A stretch of DNA of 62,898 nucleotides, the filler included, from Collodictyon triciliatum (taxonomy: Eukaryota), in assembly GCA_043381765.1 (NCBI GenBank). It is 12 parts of 12 records of this genome, joined end to end, with 100 filler letters (N's around TTAATTAATTAA, not from the genome) between each part and the next. Parts side by side here need not be neighbours in the genome. Positions count along the whole stretch, not along the records: positions 33,154 to 38,572 come from JBHJMP010005216.1; 11 more parts are not named here. One strand, given 5' to 3'. Under the pieces are notes generated by a model, which searched no databases, was not told where the DNA came from, and saw only the letters and a program-made list of their open reading frames with translations. The position numbers and the translations under genes are program-made. Position 1 is the first letter of the stretch. Each line of letters begins with the position of its first letter. Below, piece after piece: positions 22,160-35,799 of the stretch.

Positions 22160-24272
22160 AAATTCAAATACAAGCCCTCGAGAACAAACTGCTTTTCTTA
22201 AGGTCTTATAATTTCTTCAAAAACTGGGAAATCAAGCGACTCACTAAATTCTCTCACTTCATGAAAACTGCAGTATACAATTCGTCTGAAAGTGAGTTTA
22301 TTTTTTCTAAAAAATATAAAAATAAATATAGAAACAAAAAAAATTCTACCAGTAAAACAAAAATATTTTGAACTCTACAAACTCACCCAACCGTCTTGTC
22401 AGCTGTTGTTCTTCGTCAAGGTCAAATATCAGAAATTGTCTATTTGATATTCAAAGGGCAGTGCCGAATAGTATATAACGCTGAGGTTGGCCGCTCTGAT
22501 GAGACATCCTCTGCACCGGTTTGCCCCTTATACAAATTGTTAATATGCAAGTATGCTTATCCAAGTAAATCATAACAATCGTCTTTAATTTCAAAGGCTA
22601 CTTTTCGAGAGTCATCCGCTTTTGATGAGGAGGACGAAGAGTACGAGGACGAATTTAATGAGGATGGTTACCTTGAAAACCCGACTGAGGAGGAAATGGA
22701 TGAATATCTCGAACTTGAAAAGAATGAAGAATTAAGCATGGACATCTGCAAGCCCAGATTTCGTATAGCTCTATTGAGAAAAACTACACGCTATGTAAGC
22801 ATTACTTGATTAAAGACAGAGTTTTCCTCTTTTAATGGAACTGAAAAGATTTCTCACAGCCCTTAACGTCCAGATGGTTCCTAGAAAGAGACGTATGAGA
22901 CTCGACCTCGCCGTACTTGGATCTGGTGAAATGTTTGGTGAAGGAGGTGTTCTTCAAAATGCACCTCAACTGGGGACAATAATAGCAGATAATAATACAG
23001 AGCTTCTCGAAATCACAAAGACAGACTTTTTGAAACGTACTTTCTTAACCATACGATTTTTTCTATTTCGAAAAGCTGACTGGTTTTTTTTCTACAACAC
23101 AACTATTATGAAGATGATAATTATATTTATAAATATAATGACAATAAATCAAGAAAAAAACAAAAATATAGGAATGGATGATACATCTAGAGCAATGGCG
23201 GAGAGTATTTGGCGAATGAAGAATGATTGGCTGCAACAACATCTGCAGCATATCACAAAGATGAACCCTCATGGGTAGAATTTAGCATAATGACACTAAC
23301 CACGTGAATCGACATAATATACCAATTTCTCTTCATTTTTGCAACTTGATATGTCTTTCACAACAAACTTTAGGCGGCCTGGCCAGAGTTATTATCTTCC
23401 TCAGGCAGCCACAGGGCAGCCGAAATCTGGGTCGAAGTCAGCCAGGCAACTTTATATTTTATTTTATCGTGGCATATAAATTTTAATAAATGACGAGAAT
23501 GTATTGAAAACTTCCTCGCTTTAGCCTGGTTTGTATTCCGCAAGTTTTGGTGTTGACACTACTGCTCGCATTTTTTTTTTGTGACATGAAATTAAAGAAA
23601 TTAACAACAACAATAAAAGGCGCATGAATGAGCTTCCTCCTTTGCCTGAAGAATTGGCCGAAGCGATGAAGCACAGGGCTCGCCGCCCACGACCTCCAGA
23701 CCAGAAAAGATTCGACGAGCTGGTTCATGGAGTTTTTGTTACAAACATAAACGGCATACACATCCCACTTGAATAATCTCGTAACGATATATTATTCCAT
23801 CCCACTTTCAGGCGACTCCCCGTACAAAAAAGCCGTCCTCCCGAAACCGAAAGCAGATGCTGGAAGAAATAACGGCAAAGTTGCAGGAACAAGAACACGC
23901 GTTGTGGATTCAGAAACAAATGCATCTTAGTGAAAAGAGTTCCCCTGCAAAGCCCAGCTTGCCTACCGTCACAAGGACATCCAAAAAGGCAAGAAAATTA
24001 TGACATTGTTGGGTTTGTGTTGTTGCTGTAGAGACTGGCCCCTGATTTTCATTTGAATGTCACAGGTTGAAGAATACAATGTCCCGTCTGTAGCGAATTT
24101 CGACGCAATTGCACCGGCAAAGCACATTTCAAGAATTCCTCATGATAGGTATGTGTCTATATATGTGATTGGGGCGAACATGTACTCACAAAAACAACAT
24201 TTTTTGCCCAGAAATTTCCACCTGCCGCCTCTTCTCCAGGGAACGGCTCAGGACGAGGACATGGTTGCTTAA
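22160..24272 (+). CDS. Cyclic-nucleotide-binding-domain protein (CNBD1/2-like), 5' truncated
   Basis: FLRSYNFFKNWEIKRL, VLRQGQISEIVYLIFKGQCRI and LAVLGSGEMFGEGGVLQNAPQLGTIIADNNTELLEITKTDF form a cNMP-binding beta-roll with an acidic insert. Spliced tail ends EDMVA-TAA at 24272. Confidence 0.8.
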
Positions 24273-27633: not shown

Positions 27634-27734
<101 letters not shown>

Positions 27735-27768
27735 CAAAGACAAAGACAAAGACACCAAGCAACGCAGA

Positions 27769-30701
27769 ATGCTGCCCTTCGAAGCACGACGAGCACGACC
27801 CCCGACGAAAAGCGGCCGCGGCCAACTCAGCAGCGAGGAGCTTGTCAACAGCGCACAGAGGCAGCGGCTGCAGCGCCACAAACAGCGCCAAACCGACCAG
27901 TCTGTGCAGCTCCTCCAGCGGCACTTTGTCTGGGCCGCCACTCGCCGCCGCGAGCGCAAAGCCCTTTGGCAGCAGTGGGACGCGCTGGCCTCGCCCGCAG
28001 ACGCAGACCCGCCTTTGCCCGAGCTGGTGGCCCTGTTTCTCACAGCCGCAGGCCGCCGCGAATCGCCCACGGTTCCGGCCAGCGAGCCACTCCAGCGACG
28101 GCTCACCACATGCCTGGGCCTGATTCTGCGCGGCGCAAAGCACGGCGAAGCCCACCGCAACTGGTTCCAGTGCGCGACCCGCACCCGCGCCTTCTTTGAC
28201 GCATCGGCACGCGGCTTGATTCGCTGGACTCTTGCGGCCCTGTGCAGGCTGCACAACACACGCCCAAGCGCGCCGGACGCAAGCGTTTCTGCGCGGGTCT
28301 GGGTTTGGCTTCGGTTTCTGCGCCTGCTGGGAAACCCGGCCGACTGGGCTGCCGATGGCGTCCGGCCGGACCGCGTCGATGATGCCGCCTCTTGGTGGCC
28401 CGCCGATGCGCATCAGAGCCTAGTCGATGCTGCCTGCGCCTTGCTGCAGCATTCGCCTTTGTACGGCGCGGACTCGCGCCTTTCGGCTCTGGCCTGGCTG
28501 CGTGCGCTTGCGGGCCTTCTGGCTGCAGTCGATGCACGCGCTTTTGTGCGCGCGTGTTTGCCTGTGCCCGGCCTTGTCTCGCTGCTTGCGCTGGCCGATG
28601 CGCGCGAGGCTGCAAAGATGCTTGTCCGTCCGGCCCTTGTGGATGCCCTCCAAGCCTCGCTTTCCTCGCTCAGGGCCGTGGCCAAGACGCTGCCCGATTC
28701 CAGAGTGGCCCAGTGGCCTTTTCTGGACGCGGTGAGCAAGAAGGACGGCCTATTGGGCCCAAATGGCTGGCAGAAGCAGACCCTGCCTGACTCGGCCCCT
28801 GTTTCCGTTTGGATCCTGGGGAACTGCCTGGCTTTGCTGCGGCTTTGGGTAAAAAATGGGCCTTTGGGTGGTGATGTTCTGCACAGGTCCGGCTGCGATG
28901 CTGTTTCTGACCTTGTGCGGGCTGCTGCAGATGTGGCGTCCGACTTGAAGGATAGGAATCCAGATGGTCCTTCATGGGCGGGTGCGCTGGAGCTTTTTTG
29001 GTCGGCTGACTCCTTCGTGGCAAATACACTCCTGAGGTTGCACGAAAGTACAGAATCCCTTGTCGGCTCTCCCCCGACACAGCTTGATTCTCAGGACTCG
29101 CCAAAGGCATCATCCTCTCGCTTCGGCTTTTCGTTGTCTGGGATATTTGCAACAAAGACACAGAAAGTAGCTCCGTCCACCGCAAGCACCCTTACAAAGC
29201 AACCTCCCCGGTTTCTTGCTCATGCCTCGCGGCTGTATACTTCGTTGGCCCTTATCGATTCATCAGTGCGAATGTCGCTTTTAAATCACTTGGTTTTTTC
29301 TACAAAGTTGTTGCAGATTCATTCTCTGTACTTTTCTGTGCAGTACGATCGATTTCCTGATGTCTCTCGTTTTGCAGAAACCCTCTTAAGCTCTGATTCG
29401 CAGCTCGCGTCTGTGCTTACCCTTTTGGTTATGTGCTACAATCATATCATTCGCATTTTGGATACGCGAGACATCTGCGAAGCTCAAATTCCCCTGCCTC
29501 TCAATACACTTCGGTCTTTAATCGCAGTTTGCCATCGAGTCGCATTCATGTCCTTATCGCCACTAGAATCAGAAAATGTATCCACAGATTCTACCCATCG
29601 CATACTTTATGAAGCAGCCACAAACTTCAGTCGTGTTCTTTTCCAAAGAGACTCAAAAGCATCTTTTTGTCCTGCGCAACTGTGGATTTTTCCTGATTTC
29701 GCGGTCTCTTTTCATTCATATATATCTATCAATCCGAAAATTATTTTGCATAAATAAGTTGACCATTGTCTTAGATGGAACATAAATTTATACAATTTAT
29801 ATGATATTTTAACCAAAAGCATACAAACTTTTTAACACAATTTATTTCATCCCCCACTACAGTTAGATAGGAATGAGTCAGGTTTTTTTTTCTGTATTAA
29901 TATGATCTCAATCGAATATGCATGAATTTTTTTTTGAAATTGCATCTTTTAGATTCAATACCTAGTCTTTCCTGCCCCACTCTTTTCTTTTCTTTTTCTT
30001 TTTTGACAAAACAATCCAACAAACTTTATATCGGTGTAGGGAAAATTATTTTGAACTCCAAATCCAGGGCAGTTCTGAACAAATTACCCCATTCCGTCCC
30101 ATTTCATGACCGTGCATTATTTTTTCGCCAACTGGTAACTCTCGAAAATCAGCATATTTCAAACCAGTACCTTTGTCGCATCAGGTTTCCCTATTTACTT
30201 GCATTCATGTGGCTGAAGTGCACATATGAAATATAAAAATTTAAACATTCTTGCGATGGTGTTCGATCACAGAGAATAAATAATAAAAGTAAATGAACAA
30301 ATAAATTCAGTATCGATACGTGAATAACATTATAGAAGGGATCGCATCCTGGAGGATAGCATCGTGCAGTTATCTCAAATTCGAGCACAGATTAAATCAA
30401 AGATAAGAATTCAATTCGTTGATTCGCAAGGGTTTGCAGGTTAATGTCTTTTTCAATTTCTCTTTTTTTTTCTTTTTTGCATATACTTTTTTTTAGTATA
30501 TGTTTTTTTTATTTATTGTTTTCCCTTTTTTTTTTTTGTAGCTTTTTTTTGAAATAAATTATCATGTAAAAATAGAGGCTGGTATTGACCAGAATGGACT
30601 TTTCAAGGAATTTATTGAATTGCTTATCGTTCAAATATTCAACCCCAACCTTGGTATTTTTGGAGTTACATCGGTAAAGGCTTGAAAATCGCTATTTTTT
30701 A

Positions 30702-32808: not shown

Positions 32809-32921
32809 ATAAATAAATAAATAAAATTATCATCGTTTGTTATATTTGAGCGAGGAATCCGCACAACCATTAATCCTACCGGTGAAAGTCACCTTCGGGA
32901 CGGGGAGTTCATCTGCCTGTC

Positions 32922-33028
<107 letters not shown>

Positions 33029-33153
33029 CTTTCACCAAACCATTTGGTATACANNNNNNNNNNNNNNNNNNNNNNNNNNNNNNNNNNNNNNNNNNNNTTA
33101 ATTAATTAANNNNNNNNNNNNNNNNNNNNNNNNNNNNNNNNNNNNNNNNNNNN

Positions 33154-33313
33154 AACTATCAGTAACCAAATTATGACACAATAAAACCGTGTCGTTGATT
33201 TTGTCATAGCCATCCGCATTCTTTACAATCGACTTTAGGGATGTTTTCACATTCGGATAGTGTGGTTTTACAGACTTTATATTCTCAGACTCAAGACGTT
33301 TTCTCTTCTTCAT
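33154..33313 (-). CDS. Candidate Fanzor1 (eukaryotic TnpB-derived nuclease) N-terminus, truncated by contig end
   Basis: MKKRKRLESENIKSVKPHYPNVKTSLKSIVKNADGYDKINDTVLLCHNLVTDS: basic NLS plus KTSLKSI..KINDxVxxCxxLV, the pattern I recall from Fanzor1 N-termini. Only 53 codons are visible, with no RuvC motifs. Confidence 0.55.
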
Positions 33314-33634
33314 CTGAAAGTCTCTGTTTTATTTTTTTCCTTTAGAGAACTACCGAGTTTTCGATTTTAATAAAACTTCTGTCAATTAGTCAATTGGTCA
33401 ATTTAATATGTATATAAAACAACTGCACAAAATCAATTGAGGTAAAATTAAGCATCCACCGAGACTCTCAAAATGTGCGCATTGTGGCAAACAAACACAC
33501 CAACTTTTTTTTTACAAGTGATTTGAGACAAAACCCTGAGAGCCCATTCGGCAAGTTCGAAAGGACAGCCGTATAACCATTGCGACTGAAAGTCAACATA
33601 TTGTCCCCAAACAACGTGATTACTGCCGCAAGTG

Positions 33635-33703
33635 TGGATAGTATGCTTTTTTTTTTCCCTTTATTCGATTCAAAGTGTAGCGAGGTTATGCTGGATAGTA
33701 TGC
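33635..33703 (-). mobile_element. 45-nt LINE tail insertion with TSD
   Basis: TSD tggatagtatgc at 33635-33646 and 33692-33703 flanks polyT+ccctttattcgattcaaagtgtagcgaggttatgc. Confidence 0.85.
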
Positions 33704-33794
33704 TTTTTTGAAATGCATGTTTGGTGGTAGGTTTATGGGGTGGGTTCTGTCTGGGCCAACTTAAGGGCTTGTTTGTAATTTTTAATATTACATA

Positions 33795-33955
33795 AATGGG
33801 AAATATTTTTTCCTTTATTCGATTCAAAGTGCAGCGAGGTTATGCCATACAAAGGGGGCGAGATAGGTGCGCATGGTAGAGAGCAAACGCGAGTAGGAGA
33901 GGACGCTATTGTGGAGAGGCAAGCACTGGAAAGAAAAAATCAGGAATGGGAAATA
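33795..33955 (-). mobile_element. 139-nt 5'-truncated LINE insertion with 11-bp TSD
   Basis: TSD aatgggaaata at 33795-33805 and 33945-33955. The insert carries the same tail and aligns to 44780-44860 and 24664-24750. Confidence 0.85.
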
Positions 33956-35799
33956 AAATATAAATTAATTATGGGAATAGAATGGGTTTAAGTGGTTTAA
34001 CCTTGACATATACTAATTATATTATTATGTTATTCAGTTTGCTTCTTGGATTCGTCAAAGCTCATGCTTTTGTCAATCCAGATTTAATTCGATGATTGTC
34101 TGTGCAATAAACTGCTTTCTATGGGTACACTTTCGTTGTATAAAAAGTGTTGTGCTTGAAAGGGATAAAACCAAGTTCGTCACAACCTTTGTTATGAAGT
34201 ATATCCATTTACAGGCTGAATGAGACCGAAGAGAAAGAAAAAGAAAAAGAAAAAGAAAAAGAAAAAGAAAAAGAAAAAGAGATAGAAAAGAAAATGAAGA
34301 AAAGAAAAGATTTTTTTTTATTCACGACAGACTTAGCTGTTGGCGCCCATGCCAACAATATTTTTTCAACCACCAAGCAAGTAATCCGAGGTAAAAAGAA
34401 AGTAATGGCGGATGTGCCATCAGAGGAGTATAGAGATGGGAATAGAGAAAAGAGAGAAGGGGGTGAGAAGAAAAAAGAAAAGAAAAGATAAAAGAATCAG
34501 AGCAACTAAAACTGAGCACTATATTCATAATTATCTTGCTACCCGTGGGTTGATGGCTTGAGCCCGATAGGCCTTTTTTTTTTATTCCCCTTTATTATTA
34601 TTAATCTTATTTGTTTCAAAGAGCTCGCTCTGCCTTATTAGTAGTTTGTTGTACTCACGGGTCGGTGGCAGCTGGCGTCTTGATCGTGGGTGTGTCTCGG
34701 TGCATAACCTGTGTTGTAAGGGATGTGGTAAAGTGACCTTTTCGCTCTCTGCGTTGGCTGCGTCGGCCTTTTCGGTTTGCGTACGATCAGTAGGCATTCA
34801 TAGGCGCGGGGTTGTGGCGCCGGTCTCCTGGTAGGCGGTCTCCTCCTTCTCGGGATCGCGCTCTCCGATCTCTTGCGTGTTTTTTTCCGGCTTCAGAATA
34901 TGGCGAGTTGAGAAAAGAAGCAAAGAACCCCAGTGTAATAAAATATTATTTTCTAGGGAATGTGTCCTTTGTCTCTCTCATGTGCTTATTTCTCGGCAAT
35001 ACAGACTTTTTCTTAATTACCGTACTTTTTTTTTGTTGCTCCTCTCAACTCTGTCTCGATGTGTGATCGCCACATTTATTCACATTGCGATTTAATCTCC
35101 ACCGAAGCCTTTGTAGTGTTGGTGCTCAGTCCATTCCAGTTTGTCTCGCCTCTTGTGATTTCTTCGGGCATTCGCTAAAAGATAATCCCACATGGTATCA
35201 TCAGATTCTGGTGGGCGTAATGGTTGGACTTGTCGTCCAACTGTGCTTCTTGTATGTGATTGGGAAATAAAGCTCTCGCCAATATCATCTGAATATTGGG
35301 AATCCCAACGACGTCGACTTTGTTTGCCTTTCAACTGTTCTTGTGGCTCTAGGAATGCGGATTCCTCTATCGTGTTCGCCGACAAAATGATATGTGATTT
35401 AGTTTCTGAGAGATATGAAACAAAATGAAGTTATTTTTTCGTCCATGAGGTTCAGATTCGAGAAAAAAATAATTATGCGAATGAATTGCATGGTTTGGTA
35501 TTCTTAATGTACACATTTTTAACGCTACCCTTCTTTTTTGTAGTGGACTCGATGTTCTTGTCTATTTTAAACTCACAATCAATTCCCTGGTGGCTCAGAA
35601 CCATGCAAGCATCCCTACATTTAGGACAATTTTTGTTTGCTGCGAGGGGTCTTAATATTTGCTTCCTTCTATTTGTTTGAAAGAATATAATAGAAAGGTG
35701 CAGCAAAAACCAAGTATTTACGCTACATGGCTAGCGAACCAAACACATACACCCCGCTGTCTTGCACAAATTGAATAGAAGAATAGAAAAAAAAGTACT

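Follow-up and report, generated by a model that had tools for sequence, protein, structure and literature searches.

A probable Fanzor1 gene start in Collodictyon triciliatum, cut by a contig edge after 53 codons

Fanzors are eukaryotic RNA-guided nucleases that attract interest as compact genome editors and for their bearing on transposon persistence. Fanzor1 proteins are the eukaryotic and viral, TnpB-derived, omegaRNA-guided RuvC endonucleases. We analyzed a stretch of 62,898 nucleotides from the Collodictyon triciliatum assembly GCA_043381765.1 (hereafter the window), for which a sequence-only reading had proposed the N-terminus of a Fanzor1 protein at a contig edge. The window consists of 12 contigs of about 5.4 kb, chained by 11 N44-TTAATTAATTAA-N44 linkers and with one further gap of 373 N at 51246-51618; contigs that adjoin in it are not necessarily adjacent in the genome. 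The contig with the proposed open reading frame (ORF) spans 33154-38572 and carries it at its left end. The 53-codon ORF is indeed present there on the minus strand, its translation (peptide P0001) is identical to the peptide first quoted, and it runs off a contig edge that is genuine, yet internal to the window because a linker follows. The last whole codon is AGT (Ser53), at 33157-33155. The features around this start are given below, with reference to two longer relatives of the peptide, P0002 (648 amino acids, aa) and P0003 (331 aa), and to a structural model of P0002 whose confidence is expressed as the predicted local distance difference test (pLDDT).

33155..33313, minus strand: first 53 codons of the probable Fanzor1 ORF (MKKRKR...NLVTDS), with the ATG at 33313-33311, open to the contig edge
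33154..33154, minus strand: first base (T) of codon 54, which is Tyr (TAY) in relatives (Y54 in P0002 and P0003)
33296..33310, minus strand: KKRKR, codons 2-6, a basic cluster in a predicted disordered tail and a putative monopartite nuclear localisation signal
33239..33259, minus strand: YPNVKTS, codons 19-25, predicted first beta strand (strand 19-25 in the P0002 model, mostly with pLDDT above 90)
33155..33217, minus strand: codons 33-53, predicted opening part of a long helix, the first in the protein (residues 33-62 of the P0002 model)
33329..33331, minus strand: in-frame TAA stop, separated from the downstream ATG at 33313 by five sense codons
33054..33153, no strand: artificial linker N44-TTAATTAATTAA-N44, standing at the contig boundary where the ORF is cut

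P0002 matches the window peptide over 53 of its 53 residues with 75% identity (E 7e-15 among 5.8 billion sequences), and P0003 matches it with 67% identity over 52 residues. These two were the only hits among 16 candidates in a search for longer relatives covering 5.8 billion proteins. An exhaustive search returned 126 family members of 550 aa or longer. A profile of the family N-terminus built on 119 more distant ones, without P0001, P0002, P0003 and a further relative, P0005, gave the peptide 41.5 bits, with residues 17-52 aligned; the best score among 2000 shuffled versions was 13.3 bits. Alternatively, the ORF could be due to chance or encode an unrelated host protein that resembles the Fanzor1 motif, and the 53 residues alone are indeed without a significant match in Pfam or the Protein Data Bank (PDB), so that the tie to characterised Fanzor1 proteins runs through P0002 and the family profile. 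However, the ORF is more than chance given both the strength of the P0002 match among so many sequences and a score that, even with close relatives left out of the profile, lies far above the shuffle maximum. Together they refute the chance explanation, whose probability we consider negligible.

P0002 can stand in for the part of the gene beyond the contig edge. Searched against solved structures, it matched GtFz1 of Guillardia theta (9cer, E 2.1e-28), PpFz1 of Parasitella parasitica (9cf0, E 2.7e-24) and SpuFz1 of Spizellomyces punctatus (8gkh and 9cey, E 3.7e-23). The other two rows of this search were chance-level myoglobins (E 0.38 and 0.62), and Fanzor2, TnpB and Cas12f were absent among its rows. 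In the GtFz1 alignment the first aligned P0002 residue is 17, which falls within the stretch that the window encodes. In an alignment of 77 sequences with P0002 at its head (A1), both the RuvC-I aspartate D364 (VGVDPGK) and the glutamate E555 (NEFRTSK), just before the zinc finger, are invariant (77/77 each). R603/D604 of the RDxNxxxN motif are likewise kept in 76/76, and the first zinc-finger CxxC pair, C562/C565, in 61/77; the second CxxC of P0002 lies in FRCLICKEC. Pfam family PF07282 gave a weak match to P0002, below the cut-off (E 0.11). The triad of solved Fanzor1 proteins is described as a D on strand 2, an E on the loop before the TNB domain and a D or N on a helix (PMC11423790), and an "alternative glutamate" of Fanzors is described in PMC10530073; D364, E555 and R603/D604 of P0002 fit these descriptions.

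The predicted fold points the same way. An AlphaFold (AF2) model of P0002 made from A1 had a pLDDT of 89 and a predicted template-modelling score (pTM) of 0.87. In Foldseek comparisons its template-modelling score (TM) against SpuFz1 was 0.77 on the query and 0.82 on the target, with query TM of 0.71 for PpFz1 and 0.63 for GtFz1. The best chain outside Fanzor1 was Cas12X (query TM 0.33), followed by Cas12f (0.22-0.24), Fanzor2 (9b0l, 0.21) and ISDra2 TnpB (8h1j, 0.20). Fanzor2, TnpB (IS200/IS605) and Cas12f belong to the same superfamily and mechanism class, that of RNA-guided RuvC nucleases in mobile DNA, and P0002 is still detectable as sharing their fold (probability 1.0), but with a TM much weaker than that to SpuFz1. 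With a TM of 0.63-0.77 to Fanzor1 proteins and at most 0.33 to the others, the family is thus Fanzor1 and not Fanzor2 or TnpB.

Both of these other memberships were considered and rejected. For Fanzor2, the TM of 0.21 stands against 0.77 for SpuFz1, and no Fanzor2 chain came up in the sequence search. Prokaryotic TnpB of the IS200/IS605 type is compact (~400 aa), whereas P0002 has 648 aa and a TM of 0.20 to ISDra2 TnpB; moreover, the contig has a eukaryote-like low coding density and microsatellites, which is not the context of a prokaryotic TnpB.

The resemblance to the solved Fanzor1 proteins therefore extends from the sequence of P0002 (E 2e-28 to 4e-23) to its fold over the whole length (query TM 0.63-0.77), the positions of the D/E/D triad and the TNB zinc finger, although identity in the fold alignments is only 18-20%. 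Compared with PpFz1, the P0002 clade is compact (~620-650 aa) and lacks the PpFz1 insertion domain (TM 0.64 on the longer target). Direct comparison with the window itself is limited to residues 1-53, of which the strand-helix segment aligns to the start of GtFz1 and PpFz1, with the helix segment (codons 33-53) falling on GtFz1 chain residues from 412 onward. The Fanzor1 call had originally been made from an N-terminal motif, and it is upheld here by the homology, the fold and the catalytic residues of P0002. We are close to certain that the 53 residues are a Fanzor1 N-terminus.

The window holds the first 8% of the protein, which is without the catalytic and RNA parts. Residues 1-10 of the P0002 model have a mean pLDDT of 52 (low confidence). 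Of the 49 family members with 8 or more residues ahead of strand 1, a simple pattern finds a basic cluster in 25. Nuclear localisation signals are predicted in ~60% of Fanzors, and 21 of the 22 N-terminal ones tested were functional, according to PMC10530073. Judged from its residues, the KKRKR tail is a plausible nuclear localisation signal of a kind common but not universal in the family. Going by the usual topology and layout of TnpB, Cas12 and Fanzor proteins, strand 19-25 would be WED strand 1 and helix 33-62 would be REC helix 1, the first 21 residues of which are in the window.

The N-terminal motif itself holds approximately in this clade. In the clade alignment K23 (71/75), L26 (69/75), I39 (58/75) and V43 (61/76) are mostly kept, but position 47, the "H" of the motif, is N in 53/76 and H in 16/76. 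The window peptide, P0002 and P0003 all have H there.

The sequence-only reading had allowed that the ATG might belong to an internal exon, with the tttcag directly before the ATG as its acceptor. The letters do resemble a splice acceptor, and introns are known in Fanzor genes (reported in PMC10530073). Yet there is an in-frame TAA at 33331-33329, five codons 5' of the ATG, which makes this the first ATG after a stop. P0002 and P0003 open with the same Met and the same MKKRKR as the window peptide. Alignments with the giant-virus homologues (see below) begin at residue 2 or 3 of the window peptide and in the first viral codons (4004 onward, with the ORF start at 4001; E 3e-6 to 5e-6), and the viral ORFs start M-K-R-K-K at the aligned position. 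In addition, the solved Fanzor1 proteins align with P0002 from near their own N-termini. From these comparisons, ATG 33313 appears to be the true gene start and is unlikely to open an internal exon; we rate an exon with further coding sequence upstream as very improbable. Thus, 33313-33155 is very probably the genuine 5' end of a Fanzor1 gene.

Were the gene complete, the full protein (~650 aa in the nearest relative) would enter the nucleus by means of its KKRKR tail and would bind an omegaRNA whose transcription spans the 3' end of the protein's own ORF and the end of the element. Its RuvC site, with the D...E...D triad and the zinc-finger TNB domain, would then cut DNA that matches the guide and is flanked by a target-adjacent motif, and this cutting would favour retention or spread of the element. 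Such omegaRNA-guided cutting is described for SpuFz1 and GtFz1 (PMC10432273; PMC11423790). By analogy with these systems we infer the function of the localisation signal, the WED and REC assignment, the guidance by omegaRNA and the mobility of the gene in the window.

Sequencing runs offer a view of further copies. An index of public runs returned 11 rows with parts of 33155-34400 (shares of at most 0.19), none of them on record as RNA; the runs were one organism-labelled run (X1) and lake and freshwater metagenomes. For runs X1-X4, contigs were placed on the whole 33154-38572 contig, with the provision that X1 may be another organism. In X1, 390 contigs fell on 33155 to ~35330 with 85-100% identity, 48 of them at 99% or more, 122 at 95-99%, 142 at 90-95% and 78 below 90%. 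In X1, therefore, the leftmost 2 kb of the contig, with the ORF start among them, are multi-copy and diverged, and the gene probably belongs to a diverged repeat family with many copies in a freshwater microbial eukaryote. That the contig breaks 160 nt into the ORF is probably due to this multiplicity and divergence, in a short-read assembly. The surroundings had been described as a zone littered with transposable elements, which agrees with the pile-up of X1 contigs on 33155 to ~35330 but not with ~35500-38400, where 0 contigs were placed.

The sister copies also give a view past the edge. At a loose end at 33162, 3 X1 contigs (agreement 1) continue with TDTYLFARC when hand-translated in the ORF frame, like the TDSYLFVRC of P0002 and the SDCYLFARC of P0003, which indicates that the gene continues in these copies. 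Six best-supported X1 differences lie inside the ORF: 3 are synonymous and 3 change a residue (I12L, H18D and G35D). I12L and H18D give the residue carried by P0002 and P0003, and G35D puts an acidic residue at a position that is E in P0002 and H in P0003. This pattern may be a weak hint of constraint among the listed differences, beside which there are 166 further ones.

The copy in the window could nonetheless be a Fanzor1-derived remnant, that is, a 5' fragment or decayed pseudogene with no functional nuclease past the contig edge. The ORF is surrounded by diverged repeats whose copies differ by many indels, the joints between X1 copies skipping 42-431 nt, including 33238-33281 and 33253-33333 in or across the ORF start. 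Its nearest relatives include the short P0003 and P0005 (291 aa), the tail of the latter departing after KEKKKY, and a transposase was not found nearby. On the other side, all 53 codons are open and keep each of the strongly conserved positions of the family (K23, L26, I39 and V43), half of the listed copy differences are synonymous, and the sister copies stay in frame beyond the edge. We regard a remnant as rather unlikely. That the window copy is full-length and intact has, in our view, a slightly better than even chance, and that it is active is somewhat doubtful.

Several results weigh against a Fanzor1 gene at this locus and have to be set beside the homology. The 53 aa alone gave 0 Pfam families at E<=10, and among solved structures they gave chance-level rows only, namely a 21-residue Cry10Aa peptide (E 0.23) and a transcriptional regulator (E 1.7). 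As anticipated in the sequence-only reading, the RuvC domain, the omegaRNA and the element ends lie outside the window. No Fanzor pieces were found on the other 11 contigs by tblastn with P0001, P0002 and P0003 (nothing else better than E 0.95), nor was a remnant of a DDE_3 transposase found in the window (tblastn, best E 0.86 and 1.5). Short forms, P0003 and P0005, are among the nearest relatives, although their contigs may simply be cut. Finally, for the precomputed Pfam label carried by relatives, PF26935, we found no name and no mention in the literature.

Upstream of the ORF, the X1 copies bear on two further features.

33314..33652, minus strand: 5' flank shared with sister copies, being untranslated leader, promoter or element-internal DNA
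33653..35330, no strand: repeat-rich zone of uneven copy depth, a probable mosaic of several dispersed repeats

The flank is joined to the ORF start in an X1 contig of 419 nt placed at 33224-33652 with 10 mismatches and 10 gaps, and other X1 contigs cover 33185-33362 and 33342-33652. In the zone beyond, the summed X1 depth ranges from 4 to 878 per bin, falling to 0 beyond ~35500, and loose ends recur at 33936 in X1, X2 and X4. Because of this very uneven depth and the recurrent loose ends, 33653-35330 is probably a mosaic of several repeats. Terminal inverted repeats and target-site duplications were sought in the contig 33154-38572, with short, low-identity pairs only, none of them convincing; short direct repeats were found.

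Some smaller repeats were also observed in this region. A 75-nt dispersed repeat links 33860-33934 with 44856-44782 at 86.7% identity, on opposite strands of two contigs. In three runs, contigs covering 33806-33936 pass into a different conserved sequence at 33936. Nearer to the ORF, at 33635-33709, a perfect 18-nt direct repeat (TGGATAGTATGCTTTTTT) flanks a 39-nt piece that recurs at 33806-33845. X1 sister copies skip 56-57 nt there (joints 33637-33695 and 33647-33704), so that 33635-33709 is a small duplication or insertion private to the window copy.

Counted as representatives, the relatives of P0002 number 3147 at E<=1e-3 and 537 at E<=1e-30. P0005 is 82% identical to it, and apart from P0003 and P0005 no sequence exceeds 48% identity, so that the subclade of the window is small and distinct. 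A scan of metagenome contigs with P0002 confirmed 1 of 184 stretches, a 21%-identical relative (L001).

The next clade out shares 39-47% identity with P0002 over nearly the full length and lies on contigs of giant-virus metagenome-assembled genomes (MAGs) of 21-267 kb. It was found as 8 IMG/VR loci (L002-L009) in a scan with a smaller alignment, A2. The viral proteins share an M-K-R-K-K basic start and a Y-R-T-V-K-T-S-L-K-S strand. Two of the loci, L007 and L008, have 3447 nt in common (2422-5868 in each) that are 99.9% identical within unrelated flanks. This unit is bounded by ~35-nt perfect terminal inverted repeats and contains a 339-aa transposase with helix-turn-helix (HTH) and DDE_3 domains (E 1.5e-17), a 99-aa C2H2 zinc-finger ORF and a 595-aa Fanzor1, whose stop codon in L007 precedes the right element end by 92 nt. 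Such an element would serve well as a model for studying the omegaRNA of the clade. In L002 there is a 346-aa DDE_3 ORF in opposite orientation (DDE_3 and HTH, E 1.3e-13).

The association of Fanzors with Tc1/mariner elements was reportedly first described by Bao and Jurka. It is also documented in PMC10530073, and Fanzor1 in giant viruses is reported in PMC10432273. The giant-virus Fanzor1 proteins in Tc1/mariner-IS630-like (DDE_3) transposons belong to the same Fanzor1 clade as P0002. However, the viral copies sit in compact elements, each with a 339-346-aa DDE_3 and HTH transposase, whereas the 5' flank in the window is repeat-rich non-coding DNA without a transposase (best E 0.86).

These relatives raise the question of whether the contig is giant-virus DNA, either a piece of a viral genome or a recent insertion, and not a cellular transposon copy. 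That the next clade out occupies 8 giant-virus loci speaks for such an origin, as do the record name of one relative, "Transposase, viral metagenome", and the published occurrence of Fanzor1 in giant viruses. Against it, the 5.4-kb contig lacks the gene density of viral DNA: it has no stop-to-stop ORF longer than 132 aa and is full of microsatellites and dispersed repeats. When IMG/VR was scanned with P0002 alone, 0 of 36 candidate stretches were confirmed, and there is no DNA similarity between the window contig and the viral loci. Moreover, the window peptide is 75% identical to P0002 and only 36-39% identical to the viral proteins. We therefore read the contig as cellular, given the missing transposase remnant and viral DNA similarity, the lack of an ORF longer than 132 aa and the microsatellites, and we consider a viral origin improbable.

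A broader possibility can be set out for this cellular gene. The window, P0002, P0003 and P0005 might represent a live, multi-copy Fanzor1 lineage of a freshwater protist that is the cellular sister of the giant-virus Tc1/mariner-like clade and has since lost its linked transposase, and perhaps gained an intron. No relative of this lineage above ~48% identity is found elsewhere in 1.8-5.8 billion proteins. Taken as a whole we hold this scenario to be unlikely and offer it tentatively; if true, it would offer a specific example of an RNA-guided nuclease exchanged between virus and host.

P0002 also carries a 33-residue insertion at residues ~408-440, which none of the 9 giant-virus-clade proteins in A2 has. 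Model confidence in it is mostly low (mean pLDDT 59, 51 and 50 over residues 411-440), and P0005 diverges from P0002 exactly at this insertion, after KEKKKY, and soon ends. The insertion may be an intron that gene callers read through or into.

Since the Fanzor family is already known from protists, fungi and giant viruses (PMC10432273, PMC10530073), and Fanzor1 in protists and giant viruses is established, the gene start is an ordinary addition to a known family. It contributes one more protist lineage to a family of thousands, with 3147 representatives at E<=1e-3. The finding is of modest value, in that it points to an organism and a distinct small subclade from which a full-length, possibly active element might be recovered, and it ties the P0002 subclade to giant-virus transposons.

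The remainder of the window was surveyed briefly. An Rfam search of the whole window gave 0 matches at the gathering threshold. Pfam searches of 8 other ORFs in the window yielded leucine-rich repeat (LRR) and cyclic-nucleotide-binding domains only, which are uninformative for placing the organism. The LRR ORFs lie at 5534-6223 and 8026-8526, both on the minus strand (LRR_1, E 1.4e-18; LRRNT_2, E 9e-4), and the fragment of a cyclic-nucleotide-binding domain lies at 22814-23278 on the plus strand (E 1.9e-7); these are ordinary pieces of host genes. Simple repeats are conspicuous, with an (ATT)n microsatellite directly left of the linker, near 32920-33030, an 8-nt unit in at least 10 copies at the right end of the Fanzor contig (38448-38567) and a long repeat of 12-nt type at 2720-3320. 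Long micro- and minisatellites at contig ends are the likely reason that the assembly is so fragmented. The contig at 27634-33053 has a stretch with a GC content of 43-53%, notably at 27634-29757, compared with ~33-38% in most other bins, and contains a 707-aa open frame with no Pfam match; it may come from a different genomic compartment or from a different organism in the assembly.

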